Assembly (NCBI RefSeq): GCF_003334335.1
Contig: NZ_QOWQ01000015.1
Source of the DNA: Escherichia coli
GTDB lineage: Bacteria > Pseudomonadota > Gammaproteobacteria > Enterobacterales > Enterobacteriaceae
Reading direction: 5' to 3' (one strand)
DNA length: 64,000 bases
How positions within the stretch are numbered: position 1 is the first letter of the stretch; each line of letters opens with the position of its first letter. The position numbers and the translations under genes were made by a program. The notes under the pieces were generated by a model. The model saw only the letters and a program-made list of their open reading frames with translations. It was not told where the DNA came from and ran no database searches. Below are positions 1 to 45,000 of this stretch, piece after piece.

Positions 1-94
1 CCGCCGGGAGCGGATTTGAACGTTGCGAAGCAACGGCCCGGAGGGTGGCGGGCAGGACGCCCGCCATAAACTGCCAGGCATCAAATTAAGCAGA

Positions 95-121
95 AGGCCA
101 TCCTGACGGATGGCCTTTTTG
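95..121 (+). terminator. rRNA-operon distal (T2-like) rho-independent terminator; window begins just 3' of an rrn operon
   Basis: GC-rich hairpin aaggccatcc/ggatggcctt followed by TTTTT; the preceding 1-90 (ccgccgggagcggatttgaacgttgcgaagcaacggcccggagggtggcgggcaggacgcccgccataaactgccaggcat) matches from recall the well-known rrn T1-T2 spacer/T2 region used in cloning vectors. Confidence 0.6.
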
Positions 122-182
122 CATTGGCGCAGAAAAAAATGCCGGATGCGACGCTGGCGCGTCTTATCCAGCCTACTCTTGC

Positions 183-710
183 TTATCCGTTCTGCTTTTG
201 CATCCACTCCACCACAAAATCAGCCAGCCCCTCAACATCATTAATATCCAGTAATGCGACATCAAGATTAAGCGGCACATCACTGGCTACAGCAATAACA
301 TGCCTGTCTATCACTAATTCTTCAGGTCGATGTCCGGCTCCATCGCGAAACAGCACAATCTTTGCGATCTCTTCATGCTTAAACCCTTCGACCAGAATCA
401 AATCCAGCTTTGAGGTATCCATTCGACTTGCGAGAAACTGTAGATCCAGCTCTTCTTCGTCTGGTGTTTCCGTCATCAAGGCCCATCGTTGCTGGCTGGC
501 AACGATGGTTTGTGCCGCGCCAGCCTTGCGCAGCTCATAGCTATCTTTGCCTGGCTTATCAACATCCATATCATGGTGCGTATGCTTAATCAGCCCTGGA
601 CGGATCCCTCTGGCGCATAATGCCGGGATCAGTTTTTTCAAAAGCGTAGTTTTTCCGGTACCACTCCACGCGGCAAAGGCGAGTAACGGTATCATCGTTT
701 TTCCTGCCAT
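183..710 (-). CDS. mobB: Molybdopterin-guanine dinucleotide biosynthesis adapter protein MobB
   Basis: 175-aa ORF; P-loop GTGKTT near N-terminus; sequence recognised by recall; 5' end overlaps mobA 3' end by 19 bp. Confidence 0.93.
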
Positions 711-1276
711 CGGGCAAGCTCCTCTGGCGTATTCACGTTAACAAATGCATCTTTATGATCGCTGAAATCAACCGCATGACCGCCAGCCAGACGCATAAAT
801 ACCATTACCCGGCGTTCTCCTGCTTGCAGATATTCCAGTAATAAAGGCTCAATAGCGCGGTTTACCAGAGCAATAGTCGGGTGATCGCGTTCACCGTCAT
901 GGACCCACACGACAGGCGCATCTTTGCGCTGATGATTAAGCCTGGCTGCTAAATCAGGGGGAATGTAAGGCGTATCGCACGGGCAAAACAAAAACCACTC
1001 ACCAGCTTCCTGCTGCATTACTGAAAGCATTCCTGCCAGAGGGCCTGGGTAATCCGCCAGTGAATCTTCAATCACTTTCAGACCGCTTGCCTGATAGATT
1101 TCCTGATGACGATTAGCATTAACCACGACGTGAGAGAGCTGCGTCATAAGCGCGTCAGCGACATGTTGCCATAATGGTTTGCCGTTTAATTCAAGCAATC
1201 CTTTATCTACGCCGCCCATTCGTCTGGCTTTACCGCCTGCCAGCACAACGCCTGTTATCGTCGTCATCAGATTCAC
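692..1276 (-). CDS. mobA: Molybdenum cofactor guanylyltransferase MobA
   Basis: 194-aa ORF; N-terminal nucleotidyltransferase motif [13 protein letters not shown]; recognised by recall. Confidence 0.93.
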
Positions 1277-1345
1277 CGATATCGCCTCTTTTATTGTGGG
1301 ATTGACCCTGCTAACGTGTCTGTCTCAAGAGTAAGGAGCATCACT

Positions 1346-1615
1346 ATGAAATGTAAACGTCTGAATGAAGTTATTGAACTCCTCCAGCCAGCCTGGCAAA
1401 AAGAGCCAGACCTTAACCTGCTGCAATTTTTGCAGAAACTGGCGAAAGAGTCAGGTTTTGACGGCGAACTGGCGGATTTGACGGATGACATTCTGATCTA
1501 TCACCTGAAAATGCGTGATTCCGCGAAAGATGCGGTGATCCCGGGTTTGCAGAAAGATTATGAAGAAGACTTCAAAACGGCGCTGTTACGCGCTCGCGGC
1601 GTAATTAAAGAGTAA
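1346..1615 (+). CDS. yihD: Conserved small protein YihD (DUF1040)
   Basis: ORF track starts at 1316, but AGGAGC Shine-Dalgarno at 1333-1338 places the start at ATG 1346 (MKCKRLNEV..., 89 aa); recognised by recall. Confidence 0.85.
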
Positions 1616-1691
1616 AAGCTTGTAAGCGGCGCCACCAAAATCATCGTGAAATGATATCCTTCGTCATTCGTAATGTTTTCCGGATGATGGG

Positions 1692-2678
1692 ATGAATAAC
1701 AGCGCTTTTACTTTCCAGACACTACACCCGGATACCATCATGGACGCTCTGTTTGAGCATGGGATCCGGGTGGATTCCGGTCTTACCCCGCTTAACAGCT
1801 ATGAAAACCGTGTCTATCAATTTCAGGACGAAGATCGTCGACGTTTTGTCGTCAAATTTTATCGCCCTGAACGTTGGACAGCCGATCAAATCCTCGAAGA
1901 ACATCAATTTGCGTTGCAGCTGGTAAATGATGAAGTTCCGGTCGCAGCACCTGTGGCCTTTAACGGTCAGACTTTATTGAATCATCAGGGATTTTATTTC
2001 GCTGTTTTTCCAAGCGTCGGTGGTCGCCAGTTCGAAGCTGATAATATCGATCAGATGGAAGCGGTTGGGCGTTATTTAGGGCGTATGCACCAGACGGGGC
2101 GCAAACAGCTTTTTATCCATCGCCCGACCATCGGTTTGAACGAATATCTCATTGAGCCACGCAAGCTGTTTGAGGACGCTACACTGATACCTTCCGGGTT
2201 GAAAGCGGCATTCCTGAAAGCGACAGATGAGCTGATTGCCGCCGTTACAGCACACTGGCGGGAAGATTTCACCGTTCTGCGGCTACATGGAGACTGCCAC
2301 GCCGGGAATATTCTCTGGCGCGATGGTCCAATGTTTGTTGATCTGGATGATGCACGTAATGGTCCAGCCGTTCAGGATTTGTGGATGTTGCTCAATGGCG
2401 ATAAAGCCGAGCAGCGGATGCAACTGGAAACTATTATTGAAGCTTATGAAGAATTTAGCGAGTTCGACACCGCTGAAATCGGACTGATTGAACCTTTACG
2501 CGCCATGCGTTTGGTTTATTATCTTGCCTGGCTAATGCGGCGTTGGGCTGATCCCGCGTTCCCGAAAAATTTCCCGTGGTTAACCGGGGAAGATTACTGG
2601 CTGCGACAGACGGCGACTTTTATAGAACAGGCAAAAGTTCTACAAGAACCCCCTTTGCAATTAACACCTATGTATTAA
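1692..2678 (+). CDS. srkA: Stress response Ser/Thr protein kinase SrkA (RdoA/YihE)
   Basis: 328-aa ORF; kinase catalytic motif HGDCHAGNILW and DLDD; recognised by recall. Confidence 0.93.
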   Translation: MNNSAFTFQTLHPDTIMDALFEHGIRVDSGLTPLNSYENRVYQFQDEDRRRFVVKFYRPERWTADQILEEHQFALQLVNDEVPVAAPVAFNGQTLLNHQGFYFAVFPSVGGRQFEADNIDQMEAVGRYLGRMHQTGRKQLFIHRPTIGLNEYLIEPRKLFEDATLIPSGLKAAFLKATDELIAAVTAHWREDFTVLRLHGDCHAGNILWRDGPMFVDLDDARNGPAVQDLWMLLNGDKAEQRMQLETIIEAYEEFSEFDTAEIGLIEPLRAMRLVYYLAWLMRRWADPAFPKNFPWLTGEDYWLRQTATFIEQAKVLQEPPLQLTPMY

Positions 2679-2694
2679 TCGGAGAGAGTAGATC

Positions 2695-3321
2695 ATGAAA
2701 AAGATTTGGCTGGCGCTGGCTGGTTTAGTTTTAGCGTTTAGCGCATCGGCGGCGCAGTATGAAGATGGTAAACAGTACACTACCCTGGAAAAACCGGTAG
2801 CTGGCGCGCCGCAAGTGCTGGAGTTTTTCTCTTTCTTCTGCCCGCACTGCTATCAGTTTGAAGAAGTTCTGCATATTTCTGATAATGTGAAGAAAAAACT
2901 GCCGGAAGGCGTGAAGATGACTAAATACCACGTCAACTTCATGGGTGGTGACCTGGGCAAAGATCTGACTCAGGCATGGGCTGTGGCGATGGCGCTGGGC
3001 GTGGAAGACAAAGTGACTGTTCCGCTGTTTGAAGGCGTACAGAAAACCCAGACCATTCGTTCTGCTTCTGATATCCGCGATGTATTTATCAACGCAGGTA
3101 TTAAAGGTGAAGAGTACGACGCGGCGTGGAACAGCTTCGTGGTGAAATCTCTGGTCGCTCAGCAGGAAAAAGCTGCAGCTGACGTGCAATTGCGTGGCGT
3201 TCCGGCGATGTTTGTTAACGGTAAATATCAGCTGAATCCGCAGGGTATGGATACCAGCAATATGGATGTTTTTGTTCAGCAGTATGCTGATACAGTGAAA
3301 TATCTGTCCGAGAAAAAATAA
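2695..3321 (+). CDS. dsbA: Periplasmic thiol:disulfide oxidoreductase DsbA
   Basis: 208-aa ORF; signal peptide [19 protein letters not shown]; thioredoxin-fold active site CPHC; recognised by recall. Confidence 0.97.
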
Positions 3322-9029: not shown

Positions 9030-9175
9030 GATTCGCCTGAACATGCCTTTTTTCGTAAGTAAGCAACATAAGCTGTCACGTTTTGTGATGGCTATTAGAA
9101 ATTCCTATGCAACAACTGAAAAAAAATTACAAAAAGTGCTTTCTGAACTGAACAAAAAAGAGTAAAGTTAGTCGC

Positions 9176-9284
9176 GTAGGGTACAGAGGTAAGATGTTCT
9201 ATCTTTCAGACCTTTTACTTCACGTAATCGGATTTGGCTGAATATTTTAGCCGCCCCAGTCAGTAATGACTGGGGCGTTTTTTA
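9176..9284 (+). ncRNA. spf: Spot 42 small regulatory RNA
   Basis: Sequence GTAGGGTACAGAGGTAAGATGTTCTATCTTTCAGACC...GCCGCCCCAGTCAGTAATGACTGGGGCGTTTTTTA matches Spot 42 from recall; ends in an intrinsic terminator. Confidence 0.92.
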
Positions 9285-10312: not shown

Positions 10313-10556
10313 ATAGAGCGAGGACGCTAACAGGAACAATGACTCAGGATGAGGGTCAGGAGCGCCAGGAGGCGAAGACAGAGGATTGTCAGGAAGACAA
10401 ACGTCCGGAGACGTAATTAAACGGAAATGGAATCAACACGGATTGTTCCGGCTAAAGGAAAAACAGGGTGTGTTGGCGGCCTGCAAGGATTGTAAGACCC
10501 GTTAAGGGTTATGAGTCAGGAAAAAAGGCGACAGAGTAATCTGTCGCCTTTTTTCT
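10313..10556 (+). ncRNA. csrC: CsrC, CsrA-sequestering small RNA
   Basis: About 245 nt with at least 13 GGA/AGGA motifs on the + strand and a 3' hairpin aggcgacagagtaatctgtcgcct plus T-run (10525-10554); matches CsrC by recall; ends are approximate. Confidence 0.85.
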
Positions 10557-10623
10557 TTGCTTGCTTTCTGTTAGATTCCGCCGCAAATCTATACTGAATA
10601 AAACGGCTAAAAGACGAACCATT

Positions 10624-12805: not shown

Positions 12806-12890
12806 TGTAGGCCGGATAAGGCGTTTACGCCGCATCAGGCATCTGAGCATGATGCCTGATGCGGCGCTGGTCGCGTCTTATCAGGCCTAC
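12806..12890. repeat. REP/BIME element pair
   Basis: Canonical REP motifs gtaggccggataaggcgtttacgccgcatcaggc and gcctgatgcggcgctggtcgcgtcttatcaggcctac in inverted orientation. Confidence 0.9.
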
Positions 12891-14566: not shown

Positions 14567-15616
14567 TTATTTCCTGATAGGCAGGTAAACCGAGAACTCG
14601 GTATGCCCTGGCCAACTGGTAAATTCAATTTTGCCTGAATGCTGATCAATCAAATTACGAGCGATGGATAAGCCAAGCCCGGTGCCACCTTCGCGGCCGC
14701 TGACCATCGGGTAAAACAGCGTATCCTGCAAATGAGGCGGAATGCCCGGCCCGTTATCTTCCACATCAATCCGCGCCGCCAGCCGGTAGCGCTCGCCGTG
14801 TAAGGTCAGTTGAAACGCGGTGCGGGTACGCAGAATGATTTCACCGCCTTCCGGCCCCAGCGCCTGTAGCGCATTGCGCACAATATTCAGCAAGACCTGT
14901 TCAATTTGATCCGGGTCGTGCGCCAGTTCCGGTAGGCTGGGATCGTAATCACGAATCAACCGCACGTTGTCCGGCAGTTCCATCGACACCAGCGTTACCA
15001 CGCGTTCAGCCACTTTGTGAATACTTTCGGTAACGCGCGTACCGGGCAGCTGCGGCCCCAACAGACGGTCGACCAGATTTCGCAGCCGGTCCGCCTGTTC
15101 GATAATCACTTTGGTATATTCGAGTAGTGATGGGTCAGGTAACGCTTTGCTGAGCAGCTGCGCCGCGCCACGTAAACCGCCAAGCGGATTTTTAATCTCA
15201 TGTGCCAGGCCGCGCACTAAATCACGGGCAGCAACCTGCTGGGCGTGCTGTAGCTGTTCCTGACTTAAGCGGCGCTGGTTATCCATCGGAGCCATCTCCA
15301 GCAGGATCATGCCGTCCGGCATACGCTGGGCCGTCACAGAAAGGATATGCGAGCGCCCGTCGATGACCAGCGTCACTTCGTTATCGGTAAAACCTTGCCC
15401 CGCCTCCAGACTTTCTTGCATCAGCTCGATATTTAATGAGAAGTAGCTCAACAGTTCCGGTAACGGTGTACCAAACAATTTGCGGGAGCTTTGGGCGAGC
15501 AGTTGTTGCGCGGCAGGGTTGGCGTAATGGATCGCCAGGTTGTCATCGATTAACAAAATACTGTTAATCAGCGAGTTGAGGATCTGCCCAGCATCGGGCT
15601 GCGTGCCTGTTGCCAT
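14567..15616 (-). CDS. glnL: Nitrogen regulation sensor histidine kinase NR(II), NtrB
   Basis: 349-aa ORF; H-box HEIKNPL, G-box GTGLGL; recognised by recall. Confidence 0.96.
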
Positions 15617-17443: not shown

Positions 17444-17532
17444 CGCACCATCGTGCAAAAGGGCTGCACCACGATGTGAATGTTGCACCAATATAGTGCT
17501 TCAATGGAAACATTAAGCACCATGTTGGTGCA
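17444..17532 (-). promoter_or_regulatory. NtrC (NR-I) enhancer binding sites upstream of glnAp2
   Basis: Palindromes GCACCATGTTGGTGCA (17517-17532), TGCACCAATATAGTGCT (17484-17500) and GCACCATCGTGC (17444-17455), centred about -140, -108 and lower relative to the sigma-54 promoter. Confidence 0.75.
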
Positions 17533-17683
17533 ATGACCTTTGGATAACCCTTTTTATGCTCCGTGAAAGCGATCACAAAGGGACTCTGCAATACTTGTTT
17601 GCGGAGGATGTTTGTGATCCTGTTTTGTAGTGCGATTAATCCGTGTACAATAACGCGCTATTTCTAATGCCTGAGGCAAAGTT

Positions 17684-19507
17684 GTGATCGAAAAATTGCG
17701 TAATATCGCCATCATCGCGCACGTAGACCATGGTAAAACCACCCTGGTAGACAAGCTGCTCCAACAATCCGGTACGTTCGACTCTCGTGCCGAAACCCAA
17801 GAGCGCGTGATGGACTCCAACGATTTGGAGAAAGAGCGTGGGATTACCATCCTCGCGAAAAACACCGCTATCAAATGGAATGATTACCGTATCAACATCG
17901 TTGATACCCCGGGGCACGCCGACTTCGGTGGTGAAGTTGAACGTGTAATGTCCATGGTAGACTCAGTGCTGCTGGTGGTTGACGCATTTGACGGCCCGAT
18001 GCCGCAAACGCGCTTCGTAACCAAAAAAGCGTTTGCTTACGGCCTGAAGCCGATTGTTGTTATCAACAAAGTTGACCGCCCTGGCGCGCGTCCTGATTGG
18101 GTTGTGGATCAGGTATTCGATCTGTTCGTTAACCTCGACGCGACCGACGAGCAGCTGGACTTCCCGATCGTTTACGCTTCTGCGCTGAACGGTATCGCGG
18201 GTCTGGACCACGAAGATATGGCGGAAGACATGACCCCGCTGTACCAGGCGATTGTTGACCACGTTCCTGCGCCGGACGTTGACCTTGACGGTCCGTTCCA
18301 GATGCAGATTTCTCAGCTCGATTACAACAGCTATGTTGGCGTTATCGGCATTGGCCGCATCAAGCGCGGTAAAGTGAAGCCGAACCAGCAGGTCACTATC
18401 ATCGATAGCGAAGGCAAAACCCGCAACGCGAAAGTCGGTAAAGTGCTGGGCCACCTCGGTCTGGAACGTATCGAAACCGATCTGGCGGAAGCTGGCGATA
18501 TCGTTGCGATCACGGGCCTTGGCGAACTGAACATTTCTGACACCGTTTGCGACACGCAAAACGTTGAAGCGCTGCCGGCACTCTCCGTTGATGAGCCGAC
18601 CGTTTCTATGTTCTTCTGCGTTAACACCTCGCCGTTCTGCGGTAAAGAAGGTAAGTTCGTAACGTCTCGTCAGATCCTGGATCGTCTGAACAAAGAACTG
18701 GTACACAACGTTGCGCTGCGCGTAGAAGAAACCGAAGACGCCGATGCGTTCCGCGTTTCTGGTCGTGGCGAACTGCACCTGTCTGTTCTGATCGAAAACA
18801 TGCGTCGTGAAGGTTTCGAACTGGCGGTATCCCGTCCGAAAGTTATCTTCCGTGAAATCGACGGTCGTAAACAAGAGCCGTATGAAAACGTGACTCTGGA
18901 CGTTGAAGAACAGCATCAGGGTTCTGTAATGCAGGCGCTGGGCGAACGTAAAGGCGACCTGAAAAACATGAATCCAGACGGTAAAGGCCGCGTACGTCTC
19001 GACTACGTGATCCCAAGCCGTGGTCTGATTGGCTTCCGTTCTGAGTTCATGACCATGACTTCCGGTACTGGTCTGCTGTACTCCACCTTCAGCCACTACG
19101 ACGACGTACGTCCGGGTGAAGTGGGTCAGCGTCAGAACGGCGTACTGATCTCTAACGGTCAGGGTAAAGCGGTCGCGTTCGCGCTGTTCGGTCTGCAGGA
19201 TCGCGGTAAGCTGTTCCTCGGTCACGGTGCAGAAGTTTACGAAGGTCAGATTATCGGTATTCATAGCCGCTCTAACGACCTGACTGTAAACTGCCTGACC
19301 GGTAAGAAACTGACCAACATGCGTGCTTCCGGTACTGACGAAGCCGTTGTTCTGGTTCCGCCTATCCGCATGACTCTGGAACAAGCTCTGGAGTTCATCG
19401 ATGATGACGAACTGGTAGAAGTGACTCCGACCTCTATCCGTATTCGTAAACGTCACCTGACGGAAAACGATCGTCGCCGCGCCAACCGCGCACCGAAAGA
19501 CGATTAA
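17684..19507 (+). CDS. typA: Ribosome-dependent translational GTPase TypA/BipA
   Basis: 607-aa ORF with GTG start at 17684 and GAGG Shine-Dalgarno at 17672-17675; G motifs [18 protein letters not shown]; recognised by recall. Confidence 0.95.
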
Positions 19508-19524
19508 TTTCGTTTTTTAGTCAT

Positions 19525-19557
19525 AAAAAACCTGCCAGCGATGGCAGGTTTTTTTTT
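19525..19557 (+). terminator. Rho-independent terminator after typA
   Basis: Hairpin cctgccagcgatggcagg flanked by A-run and followed by T9. Confidence 0.85.
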
Positions 19558-19723
19558 GCCTGTCGTGAGCGCACACCAATGCGAGTATCTCCCTTATAAG
19601 TCTGTGGTTACGTCAATAGAGAGCTTTGTCACAATTATCTGCAAAGTCATACGCCGTTAATTGCTTTCTTTTTTGGCGTAAGCGTAAGATGCTTCATCTG
19701 GTTTAAACCAAAAGGATTAAACA

Positions 19724-42048: not shown

Positions 42049-45000
42049 TTACACCTTTTCCACATTCACAAGGAAGGACTTAAACTCCGGCGTCTGCGTG
42101 TTCGCATCACCAACGAATGGCGTTAAAGTATTGGCAATAAAGCCTTTTTTAGCTACGCCTTCATAGCCCCAGTGAATCGGAATACCGATGGTATCGATAT
42201 CTTTGCCGTTCGCTTTCAGCGTGCGAATACGTTTGGTCACCACCGCTTTGGCTTTGATATAGCCACGGTTGGAGGAGACTTTCACGGTATCGCCCTGGGC
42301 AATGCCAAGTTTATTCGCCAGCGACTCCCCGATTTCCACAAACTGCTCTGGCTGCAAAATCGCGTTCAACAGCGCGTGTTTGGTCCAGTAGTGGAAGTGC
42401 TCGGTCAGACGATAGGTGGTTCCGACATACGGGAACTTATCGGCTTTACCCAATGCTTCGGCGTCGTCTTTAAAGATACGTGCAGCCGGGTTCGAGATAA
42501 CGTTTGGATGCAGCGGGTTAGTTCCCAGCGGCGTTTCAAACGGCTCGTAGTGTTCCGGGAACGGACCTTCCGCCATCTTATCGAGGGCAAACAGACGCCC
42601 CATGCCTTCCTGCTGCATGATAAACGGCCCGACGCCGCTACCCGGAGGCGCTGCGCTGTAGTCCGGAATATCCCAGCCGGTCCACTTAGTGCCGTCCCAT
42701 TTCAGCAACTGACGCTTCGGATCCCACGGGTTACCCTGCGGATCTGCGGAGGCGCGGTTATACAGAATGCGGCGGTTAAGCGGCCATGCCCATGCCCAGC
42801 CCAGCGTGTTACCGAGGCCAGACGGATCGGCGTTATCACGGCGTGCCATCTGGTTGCCTTCCGGCGTCCAGCTACCGGCGAAAATCCAGCAGCCACAGGA
42901 GGTTGTACCGTCATCGCGCAATTGGGCGAACGAACTAAGTTGTTGGCCTTTCTTGACGATAACCGCACCGGTTGCCGGATCGGTAATATCGGCCAGCGCC
43001 TTACCGTTGCTCTCCATCGCCACTTCTTCTGAAGATGGCTCATGCGGAATGGCGTAGTTCCATGTCATGTTCAGCACCTGGTCCGGGTTCGCGCCACCCT
43101 GTTCGGCATACATCTTGCGCAAGCGCAGGAAGATACCGGAGAGGATCTCGCCGTCAGTCAGCGCAATCCCCGGGGCGTCCGCACCTTTCCAGTGCCACTG
43201 TAACCAGCGACCTGAGTTAACGATAGAACCGTTCTCTTCCGCGAAGCAGGTCGATGGCAGACGGAACACTTCGGTCTGGATCTTCGACGAGTCAACTTCG
43301 TTCAGCTCACCGTGGTTCTGCCAGAAGTTAGAGGTTTCAGTGTTCAGTGGGTCGATGGTGACGAGGAACTTCAGTTTCGACAGACAACCGATCACTTTGT
43401 TTTTGTTCGGGAATGAGGCAACAGGGTTAAAGCCCTGGCAGATATAGCCATTGACCTTGCCCTCTTTCATCATCTCGAAGTATTGCAGGACGTCGTAGCC
43501 TTTATCCCACTTCGGCAACCAGTCAAAGCCCCAGCTATTTTCCGCCGTCGCTTTATCACCAAAGAAGGCCTTCATCATAGAGACGAAGAATTTCGGGTAG
43601 TTGCCCCAGTAGTTTACCTGGCCTTCCAGCAGCGGTTTTGGCGTGTTGGCGGTAAGGTAGGTTTGCAGATCGGTCTGCTTCTCGCTTGGCAGCGTCATGT
43701 AACCTGGCAGGCTCTGCGACAGCAGCCCCAGGTCCGTCAGCCCCTGAATATTGGAGTGACCGCGCAGGGCGTTAACGCCGCCGCCTGCCATCCCCATATT
43801 GCCGAGCAGCAGCTGGATCATCGCCATCGTACGAATGTTTTGCGCACCAACGGAGTGTTGCGTCCAGCCGAGGGCATACAGGAACGAGGCAGTTTTATCG
43901 TGAGCACTGGTTTCTGCGATGTATTCGCAGACTTTCAGGAACGCGTCTTTTGGCGTACCACAGATGTTTTCAACCACATCTGGCGTGTAGCGGGAAACGT
44001 GCTGTTTCAGCAAGTTCCACACGCAGCGCGGATGTTGCAGCGTGGTATCGCGTTTGGCGAAGCCGTTTTCGTCCAGTTCATAAGTCCAGGAGGATTTATC
44101 GTACTTGCGTTTTTCCGCGTCGTAGCCGGTGAACAGGCCATCTTCAAAGCCGTAATCCTCACGCACGATCAGGCTGGCGTTGGTATAGGCTTCGGTGTAT
44201 TCGCGGTTGAATTTTTCATTGTTCAGCAGGTACAGCAATACGCCTGACAGGAAAGCAATGTCAGTACCGGAACGAATAGGGGCATAGTAGTCAGCTACCG
44301 CCGCCGTACGCGTAAAGCGAGGATCGATCACAATCAGCTTCGCGCCGTTGTGAATTTTGGCTTCCATCGCCCAGCGGAACCCGACCGGGTGAGCTTCAGC
44401 GGCGTTACCGCCCATCACCACGACGAGGTTGGCGTTCTTGATGTCGACCCAGTGGTTGGTCATCGCACCGCGACCAAATGTTGGAGCAAGACTTGCTACC
44501 GTTGGTCCGTGTCAGACACGCGCCTGGTTGTCGACCGCGAGCATACCCAGCGCGCGGGAGAATTTTTGCGTTAAATAGCCGGTTTCGTTACTCGACGCGG
44601 AAGCACACAGCATCCCGGTGGAGAGCCAGCGGTTAACAGTCACGCCTTCGGCGTTTTGCGCAATGTAGTTAGCATCGCGGTCTTCTTTCATCAGTTTGGC
44701 GATGCGATCAAACGCCTCTTCCCAACTGATTTGCTGCCATTTATCAGAACCTGGCGCACGGTATTCCGGAAACTTCAGACGGCTTTCGGAGTGGATGAAA
44801 TCCACCAGGCCAGCGCCTTTCGGACAAAGTGCACCGCGGTTGACCGGGTGATCCGGATCGCCTTCGATATGGAAGATAGATGCTTTGGCGTTTTTTGCTC
44901 CGTCACCGAGGCTGTACATCAACAGCCCACAGCCTACGGAACAATAGGTGCAGGTATTACGGGTTTCGCGGGTGCGCAGCAGTTTATACTGCCGGGTTTC

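Follow-up and report, generated by a model that had tools for sequence, protein, structure and literature searches.

What lies at the start of a 64,000-nucleotide stretch of Escherichia coli DNA (contig NZ_QOWQ01000015.1 of assembly GCF_003334335.1; this whole stretch is referred to here as the window), ahead of the gene mobB? An initial annotation, made from the letters alone, had read positions 1-121 as the T1-T2 spacer and T2 hairpin of an enterobacterial rrn operon and had used this to explain a gene-free start. The locus therefore raises two questions, namely which of the rrn operons ends here, and whether the interval between the two terminators is indeed empty. We conclude with high confidence that the E. 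coli K-12 rrnA operon ends in window 1-122 and that this tail includes part of the small RNA gene rrA, for which a model of T1 read-through applies. This is an already described and ordinary feature.

Identity of the operon at the window start

Position 1 of the window corresponds to NC_000913.3 4,040,724 in E. coli K-12 MG1655, 87 nt past the annotated 3′ end of the 5S gene rrfA, which has the same orientation. Window 1-200 was identical to the K-12 rrnA end at 200 of 200 positions, and window 1-3000 showed 100% identity to MG1655 and to many other strains. Annotated upstream is a complete rrnA operon, rrsA-ileT-alaT-rrlA-rrfA (16S, tRNA-Ile, tRNA-Ala, 23S, 5S), and the Rfam 5S model detected the K-12 rrnA upstream 5S with 90.5 bits (locus L003, 120-235). 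Downstream of the window start come a REP element, the oppositely oriented genes mobB and mobA, and after these yihD, srkA and dsbA. The 5S gene that the initial annotation had placed just upstream, within a limit of 500 bp, is thus present. Its claim that mobB converges on the rrn end also held, mobB being the minus-strand ORF at 183-710 (stop codon 183-185) in both the ORF list and the RefSeq annotation.

A search of E. coli genomes with window 1-121 returned rrn distal regions at 100% identity (E = 6e-56), with matches at 14,759 places in 4,363 E. coli genomes and a median of three per genome. All seven K-12 rrn ends were then compared with the window. The rrnB end agreed at 124 of 125 positions over 1-125, with the sole mismatch at 123, so that 1-122 are identical; this exact alignment upheld the reading of 1-121 as T1-T2 interval plus T2 hairpin. 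The rrnD end (after rrfF) was 93.6% identical, and the rrnG end matched window 69-167 only, at 95% identity, because the rrnG 5S gene runs directly into a T2-like hairpin. The rrnC, rrnE and rrnH ends matched the window in the 5S 3′ end only, and their terminators differ. From position 123 the window continues with rrnA sequence (A-run, REP, mobB) and not with rrnB or vector sequence (GCGTTTCTAC, then murB). The divergence from position 123, with mobB and not murB as the next gene, identifies the operon at the window start as rrnA rather than rrnB.

The remark that this sequence is familiar from expression vectors was likewise correct, since pMQ, a 9-kb ColE1-type plasmid, carries a 5S-T1-rrB-T2 segment identical to rrnB. 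We nevertheless give practically no credence to the idea that the match represents cloning-vector contamination or an rrnB-derived insert, for although small ColE1-type plasmids contain these 121 nt as well, as do 28 plasmid places within E. coli assemblies, the sequence follows rrnA past window 123 and not GCGTTTCTAC, the same junction is found in 1171 genomes, and the unbroken run into REP-mobB-mobA-yihD-srkA-dsbA at 100% identity to MG1655 already refutes such an origin through its contiguity with mobB.

Anatomy, terminators and proposed processing of rrA

The intervals of rrnA, rrnB and rrnD have been described as the genes rrA, rrB and rrF (Stenum et al., 2021; PMC8144298). The rrA gene begins 3 nt past rrfA, at a point about 83 nt before the window, and the window holds the 3′ 89 nt of about 173. 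This 3′ portion, part of a tRNA-linked repeat (TLR) that encodes the small RNA RrA, occupies 1-89 on the plus strand and is cut by the window edge; its end coordinate of 89 was computed from the published length of 173 nt (PMC8144298) and is hence approximate. The location between T1 and T2 given in the initial annotation was therefore right, but the interval is no empty spacer, being the 3′ part of an sRNA gene, and the window does not have a gene-free start, since it begins inside that gene.

Within this portion, hairpin H1 (1-18, plus strand) has the last 4 nt of its 5′ strand at 1-4, the loop CGGGA, with a GGA motif, at 5-9 and its 3′ strand GCGGATTTG at 10-18; the other bases of that 5′ strand, CAAAT, precede the window. 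Hairpin H2 (21-35, plus strand; CGTTGC-GAA-GCAACG) and the small hairpin H2b (36-46, plus strand; GCCC-GGA-GGGT, with GGA as its loop) are RNAalifold-predicted and lie in the TLR core. Hairpin H3 (46-66, plus strand; TGGCGGGC-AGGAC-GCCCGCCA) carries GGA in its loop and is a CsrA-type site. It is followed at 69-86 (plus strand) by the 18-bp direct repeat AACTGCCAGGCATCAAAT, a copy of the last 13 nt of 5S rRNA and 5 nt of trailer. In a local alignment of the repeat region with 5S plus trailer, the first 18 positions were identical, 26 of 30 positions agreed overall, and none of 500 shuffles reached the score. The repeat has been proposed as an RNase E processing signal (PMC8144298).

Other genes were also considered for the interval. 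A second 5S gene or pseudogene was rejected, as the Rfam 5S model gave no match there at E ≤ 10 and only 30 nt at the 3′ end resemble 5S. ARAGORN found no tRNA or tRNA-like gene (0 genes in L003). Two short ORFs seen by eye over the interval, one of 31 codons with a GTG start on the plus strand and one of 36 codons with an ATG start on the minus strand, were rejected as coding because the few differences between genera showed no third-position bias and the core was without any synonymous variation.

The terminator T2 of rrnA lies at 90-122 on the plus strand. Its stem spans 94-117, with 96-103/108-115 as the G+C core, its loop is TGAC (104-107), and its T-run occupies 116-120. Its predicted fold (window 88-125) has a dG of -22.8 kcal/mol and a z of -6.1, and none of 200 shuffles folded as well. 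T1, just upstream of the window, has a predicted fold of -32.6 kcal/mol (z = -10), and the stems of both terminators show compensatory changes in Salmonella, Klebsiella and Citrobacter. Judged by these predicted folds, the rrnA end contains two intrinsic terminators, each a G+C-rich hairpin with a T-run. A simple terminator scan of the window did not list T2, because extension of its stem through A-U and G-U pairs consumes the T-run. In published work T1 terminates approximately 87% of transcripts, as cited in PMC8144298, and T2 approximately 100% (Orosz, 1991, as cited in PMC8144298).

What is known of the RNA comes from the same source. RrA-type RNAs are described as products of T1 read-through; the 5′ end of RrA maps 3 nt after 5S, at a known RNase E site, and its 3′ end 3 nt after the 18-bp repeat, with plasmid over-expression used for the mapping. 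[quoted passage not shown] RrA binds Hfq in vitro, and RrB binds CsrA in vitro in a manner that requires the GGA motifs and loops. Deletion and over-expression produced modest CsrA-related phenotypes only, with the same direction of effect (Stenum et al., 2021; PMC8144298). The processing sites and the protein binding of RrA thus rest on one paper.

Put together as a model, RNA polymerase passes 16S, tRNA-Ile, tRNA-Ala, 23S and 5S and reaches T1, where most transcripts end. The fraction that reads through transcribes rrA (window ~-83 to 89) and stops, essentially completely, at T2 (94-120). As the authors of PMC8144298 propose, RNase E would cut 3 nt past 5S and again past the repeat and so free the 173-nt RNA, and RrA would signal the rate of rRNA transcription to the Csr network. 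We would add that T2 may also shield the convergent mobAB operon, and that, conversely, transcription of mobAB plausibly ends at the REP hairpin, which on the minus strand is followed by seven T.

This latter suggestion concerns the gap between T2 and mobB, in which we read from the sequence an A-run at 133-139 (seven A, hence a T7 on the minus strand; no strand assigned), common to rrnG and to rrnA of O157. A single REP element (141-176, no strand assigned) stands between T2 and the mobB stop codon, and at rrnG, too, the terminator is followed by this A-run and REP. The element fits the imperfect-palindrome consensus of REP, GCC(G/T)GATGCG...CGTCTTATC(C/A)GGCCTAC, and the REP tail GCGTCTTATCCRGCCTAC has 12 copies in the window against 0 expected; the element gave a sub-threshold naRNA4 match of 31.7 bits. 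Its minus-strand fold has a z of -3.6, and TTTTTTT follows the hairpin on that strand (window 176 down to 133). The predicted fold and T-run may therefore constitute a putative mobAB terminator standing back to back with T2. Elsewhere in the window, other Rfam matches comprised REP-derived naRNA4 clusters, ES222, STnc370 and a minus-strand SECIS element (12810-12887, 53596-53758, 62603-62680, 17495-17602, 19492-19560 and 44459-44517). The CsrA-sequestering RNA CsrC (10313-10566) and Spot 42 (9166-9284) lie about 10 kb downstream of rrA; that two CsrA-binding RNAs, rrA and CsrC, should be so close is probably a coincidence.

Conservation, pairing and distribution of rrA

To assess conservation, rrn ends of Escherichia, Salmonella, Klebsiella and Citrobacter, both orthologous and paralogous, were aligned. 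The approximately 90 nt between T1 and T2 were nearly invariant in these genera and about as conserved as 5S, whereas T1 and T2 drifted across the same genera. In H2, the variants CGTCGC/GCGACG are compensatory and the middle base of the loop is A, C or G between genera; the invariance of H2b was partly forced by the search patterns used. When all unit types were aligned with MAFFT, RNAalifold recovered H2 and H2b and no others, as the register of H1 and H3 shifts from one unit type to another, and these two stems were scored sequence by sequence instead of by alignment. Among 61 units from genomes and metagenomes, H1 was found in 29 distinct stem versions, mostly paired over the full length (e.g., CAAATCCGC/GCGGATTTG, CAAAAGC/GCTTTTG and AAAAATCGC/GCGATTTTT), and H3 in 27, again mostly paired throughout (e.g., TGAATCAC/GTGATTCA and TGTGCGCC/GGCGCACA); a few of the 61 units were degenerate or deleted. 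The invariance of the interval, taken with pairing of H1 and H3 that is kept through different sequences, suggests that rrA is under constraint. A pattern scan of genome contigs yielded 16 loci, all in Enterobacteriaceae. Conservation had been reported for 31 species in 12 genera of Enterobacterales, and our independent conservation and covariation results match that study (Stenum et al., 2021; PMC8144298).

Two variant loci were observed alongside these units. At the rrn-mobB locus of Salmonella Infantis, the orthologous rrA (L028 780-870) has lost H1 by a deletion of approximately 37 nt and has kept H2, H2b, H3, the repeat and T2. A second type of rrn-linked TLR, here called type B, lies in an rrnH-like operon of E. 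coli TUM18781 (L029 721-860) between 5S and aspU, without T1. Its H1 (AAAAGC-GAAA-GCTTTT) and H3 (GAATCAC-GAA-GTGATTC) are wholly unlike those of rrA in sequence and keep the pairing, and the loops of both are without GGA; from these loops, type B may not bind CsrA. Type B copies with at least 80% coverage were present in 574 of 5426 E. coli genomes, and those inspected (L029 and similar metagenome loci) lay between 5S and a tRNA gene, without T1.

The occurrence of rrA at rrnA itself varies within E. coli. Window 1-250 in one piece, i.e., the K-12 form with T1 and rrA at rrnA, was present in 1171 of 5426 complete E. coli genomes; rrA is absent from rrnA in about 78% of them, and the rrnA copy is therefore dispensable. 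In rows sampled from the remaining genomes, the match nearly always started at window 69, overlapping the 5S annotation. In an O157:H7 example (L075 292-430), 5S leads directly into T2-REP-mobB, as in rrnG. The K-12 form and the short rrnA form differ by a 168-bp block (T1 plus rrA) that is bounded by the 18-bp direct repeat.

This dispensability is one of the points that could be held in favor of reading the T1-T2 interval as a neutral spacer, or as the decayed leftover of a duplicated 5S, so that only the two hairpins matter, a view not far from how the initial annotation had put it. The 18-bp copy of the 5S 3′ end and a GAGTAGG motif upstream of it do resemble remnants of a second 5S, rrnD truly has two 5S genes, and the published phenotypes are weak (PMC8144298). 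We nonetheless regard this reading as very improbable, given that between genera the flanking terminators vary far more than the interval does, that H1 and H3 covary, that the Rfam 5S model is silent there, and that discrete CsrA- and Hfq-binding RNAs have been reported (PMC8144298). A constrained RNA gene, rrA, remains our reading of the interval.

Relatives of the TLR module and comparison with known systems

Several features place rrA among the TLRs: it lies downstream of a stable-RNA gene in an rRNA operon, carries 18 bp that repeat the 5S 3′ end and its trailer, has a core in common with the TLRs of tyrT and of the lysT operon, and shows covarying H1 and H3 stems. The family is reportedly that of Egan and Landy in 1978 and of Rudd in 1999. 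In K-12, 22 TLR copies are distributed over ten loci, and every copy closes with an 18-19-bp stretch that exactly repeats how the upstream tRNA or rRNA gene ends at its 3′ side (PMC8144298).

The related Rfam family RtT (RF00391) matched the rrn element with 17 bits (E = 1.2) over model positions 42-89 only, below the gathering threshold of 45 bits; the rrn element is a relative of RtT and not a member as Rfam defines that family. An above-threshold RtT instance with the exact rrA core was found in a tRNA operon (L066), the K-12 tyrT repeats contain GAACGTTGCCACAGGCAACGGCCCGAAGGGTG, and the H2 stem also occurs in the tyrT TLRs, where it is one C-G pair longer. In tRNA operons, the TLR core was observed inside a partial tRNA copy, at the T-loop (K-12 tyrT-tyrV-rttR, L074 minus strand; L066 1990-2390). 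The layout at K-12 tyrT, with tRNA-Tyr as the host fragment, is AAGGTTCGA[core]AATAATCCTTCCCCCACCACCA, and that in L066 is GCAGGTTCG[core]GAATCATCCTGCACGACCCACCA, the 3′ part of which we read as a tRNA-Lys 3′ end. The layout of rrA runs parallel, with partial 5S 3′ end sequence flanking the core as GAGTAGGAC[core]AAACTGCCAGGCAT.

A metagenome scan with the TLR core gave 39 loci, about half of which were rrn ends. At the remaining loci, the TLR unit was single or in tandem arrays with a period of 75 nt, mostly with no tRNA gene nearby. Arrays were located on environmental contigs at L051 5700-6050, L048 5150-5350, L034 700-940 and L041 10200-10400, and in L044 and L072. The array units have the H1-H2-H2b-H3 layout, often with GGA in the loops; no Rfam match to them was found, and a plasmid search with the array as query returned rrn TLRs only. 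One set of arrays lies between a gene for a PHA-granule-associated protein and phaI-phaF, adjoining ubiE-ubiJ-ubiB, a gene order that we take to be Pseudomonas-like; here the units are antisense to both neighboring genes. Another set lies between aguA and cmk-rpsA on a high-G+C contig, which we assume is probably from Xanthomonadales. Intergenic length differs between related array contigs, which suggests variation in array copy number.

That the rrA/TLR module is one member of a wider Gammaproteobacteria repeat family, not tied to stable-RNA operons, is a possibility that we hold only tentatively and lean against. If transcribed, the arrays could be multi-site CsrA/RsmA sponges, or they could be an amplifying element, and either, if true, would change how the enterobacterial TLRs are read. 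TLR-like arrays in other Gammaproteobacteria, and the presence of rrA at rrnA in only about one fifth of E. coli genomes, are cheap leads into TLR function and not conclusions.

The same observations bear on a further reading, in which the TLR module would chiefly be a repeat that is selfish or spread by recombination, that inserts into or beside the 3′ ends of stable-RNA genes and that can amplify in tandem, its binding of CsrA and Hfq being incidental. Such a repeat could account for a module that sits inside partial tRNA copies in tRNA operons and inside a partial 5S 3′-end copy in rrn operons, for a presence/absence polymorphism with the 18-bp direct repeat at its bounds, for a second type at other operons in 574 genomes, and for related units in 75-nt tandem arrays away from any tRNA gene. 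We consider it unlikely, because a sequence that hardly varies between genera at orthologous sites points to a function at those sites, the module is not accompanied by a transposase or other mobility gene, and the polymorphism can be accounted for by gene conversion among rrn operons, with no need for mobility. The preferred reading is still that of an rrnA tail from which RrA is produced by T1 read-through, and this can be set beside several known systems.

Like CsrB and CsrC, RrA-type RNA has GGA motifs in hairpin loops and GGA-dependent binding of CsrA in vitro (PMC8144298). It is unlike them in that it has far fewer sites, competes approximately ten-fold less strongly than CsrB, lacks a promoter of its own and is short-lived, and there is no sequence homology between them. 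The RtT units (rttR, the tyrT operon repeats) share with rrA the core GAACGTTGC...GCAACGGCCCGNAGGGTG, a terminal segment that repeats the 3′ end of the gene upstream, and co-transcription with a stable RNA; they differ in the flanking hairpins and in having tRNA-Tyr or tRNA-Lys, and not 5S, as the host fragment. The rrnG-type single-terminator end, found at K-12 rrnG and at rrnA of O157:H7, Nissle and most other strains, has the 5S 3′ end, T2-like hairpin, A-run and REP in common with K-12 rrnA and is without T1 and TLR, so that K-12 rrnA equals an rrnG-type end plus the 168-bp block.

The rrnB T1-rrB-T2 segment, known as a vector cassette, has the order 5S, T1, TLR, 18-bp repeat and T2 in common with rrnA; from window 123, rrnB leads into co-directional murB and rrnA into convergent mobB. 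The ‘rrnB T1T2’ cassette of many expression plasmids accordingly contains a complete copy of this CsrA- and Hfq-binding RNA, a point made by Stenum et al. (2021; PMC8144298). With respect to RrA, RrB and RrF and the TLR family, the sequence at the window start shows no difference for K-12, since it is rrA itself, with the 18-bp copy, the stem-loops and the GGA motifs, and the window is to be annotated as beginning inside rrA of the rrnA operon and not in empty terminator DNA.
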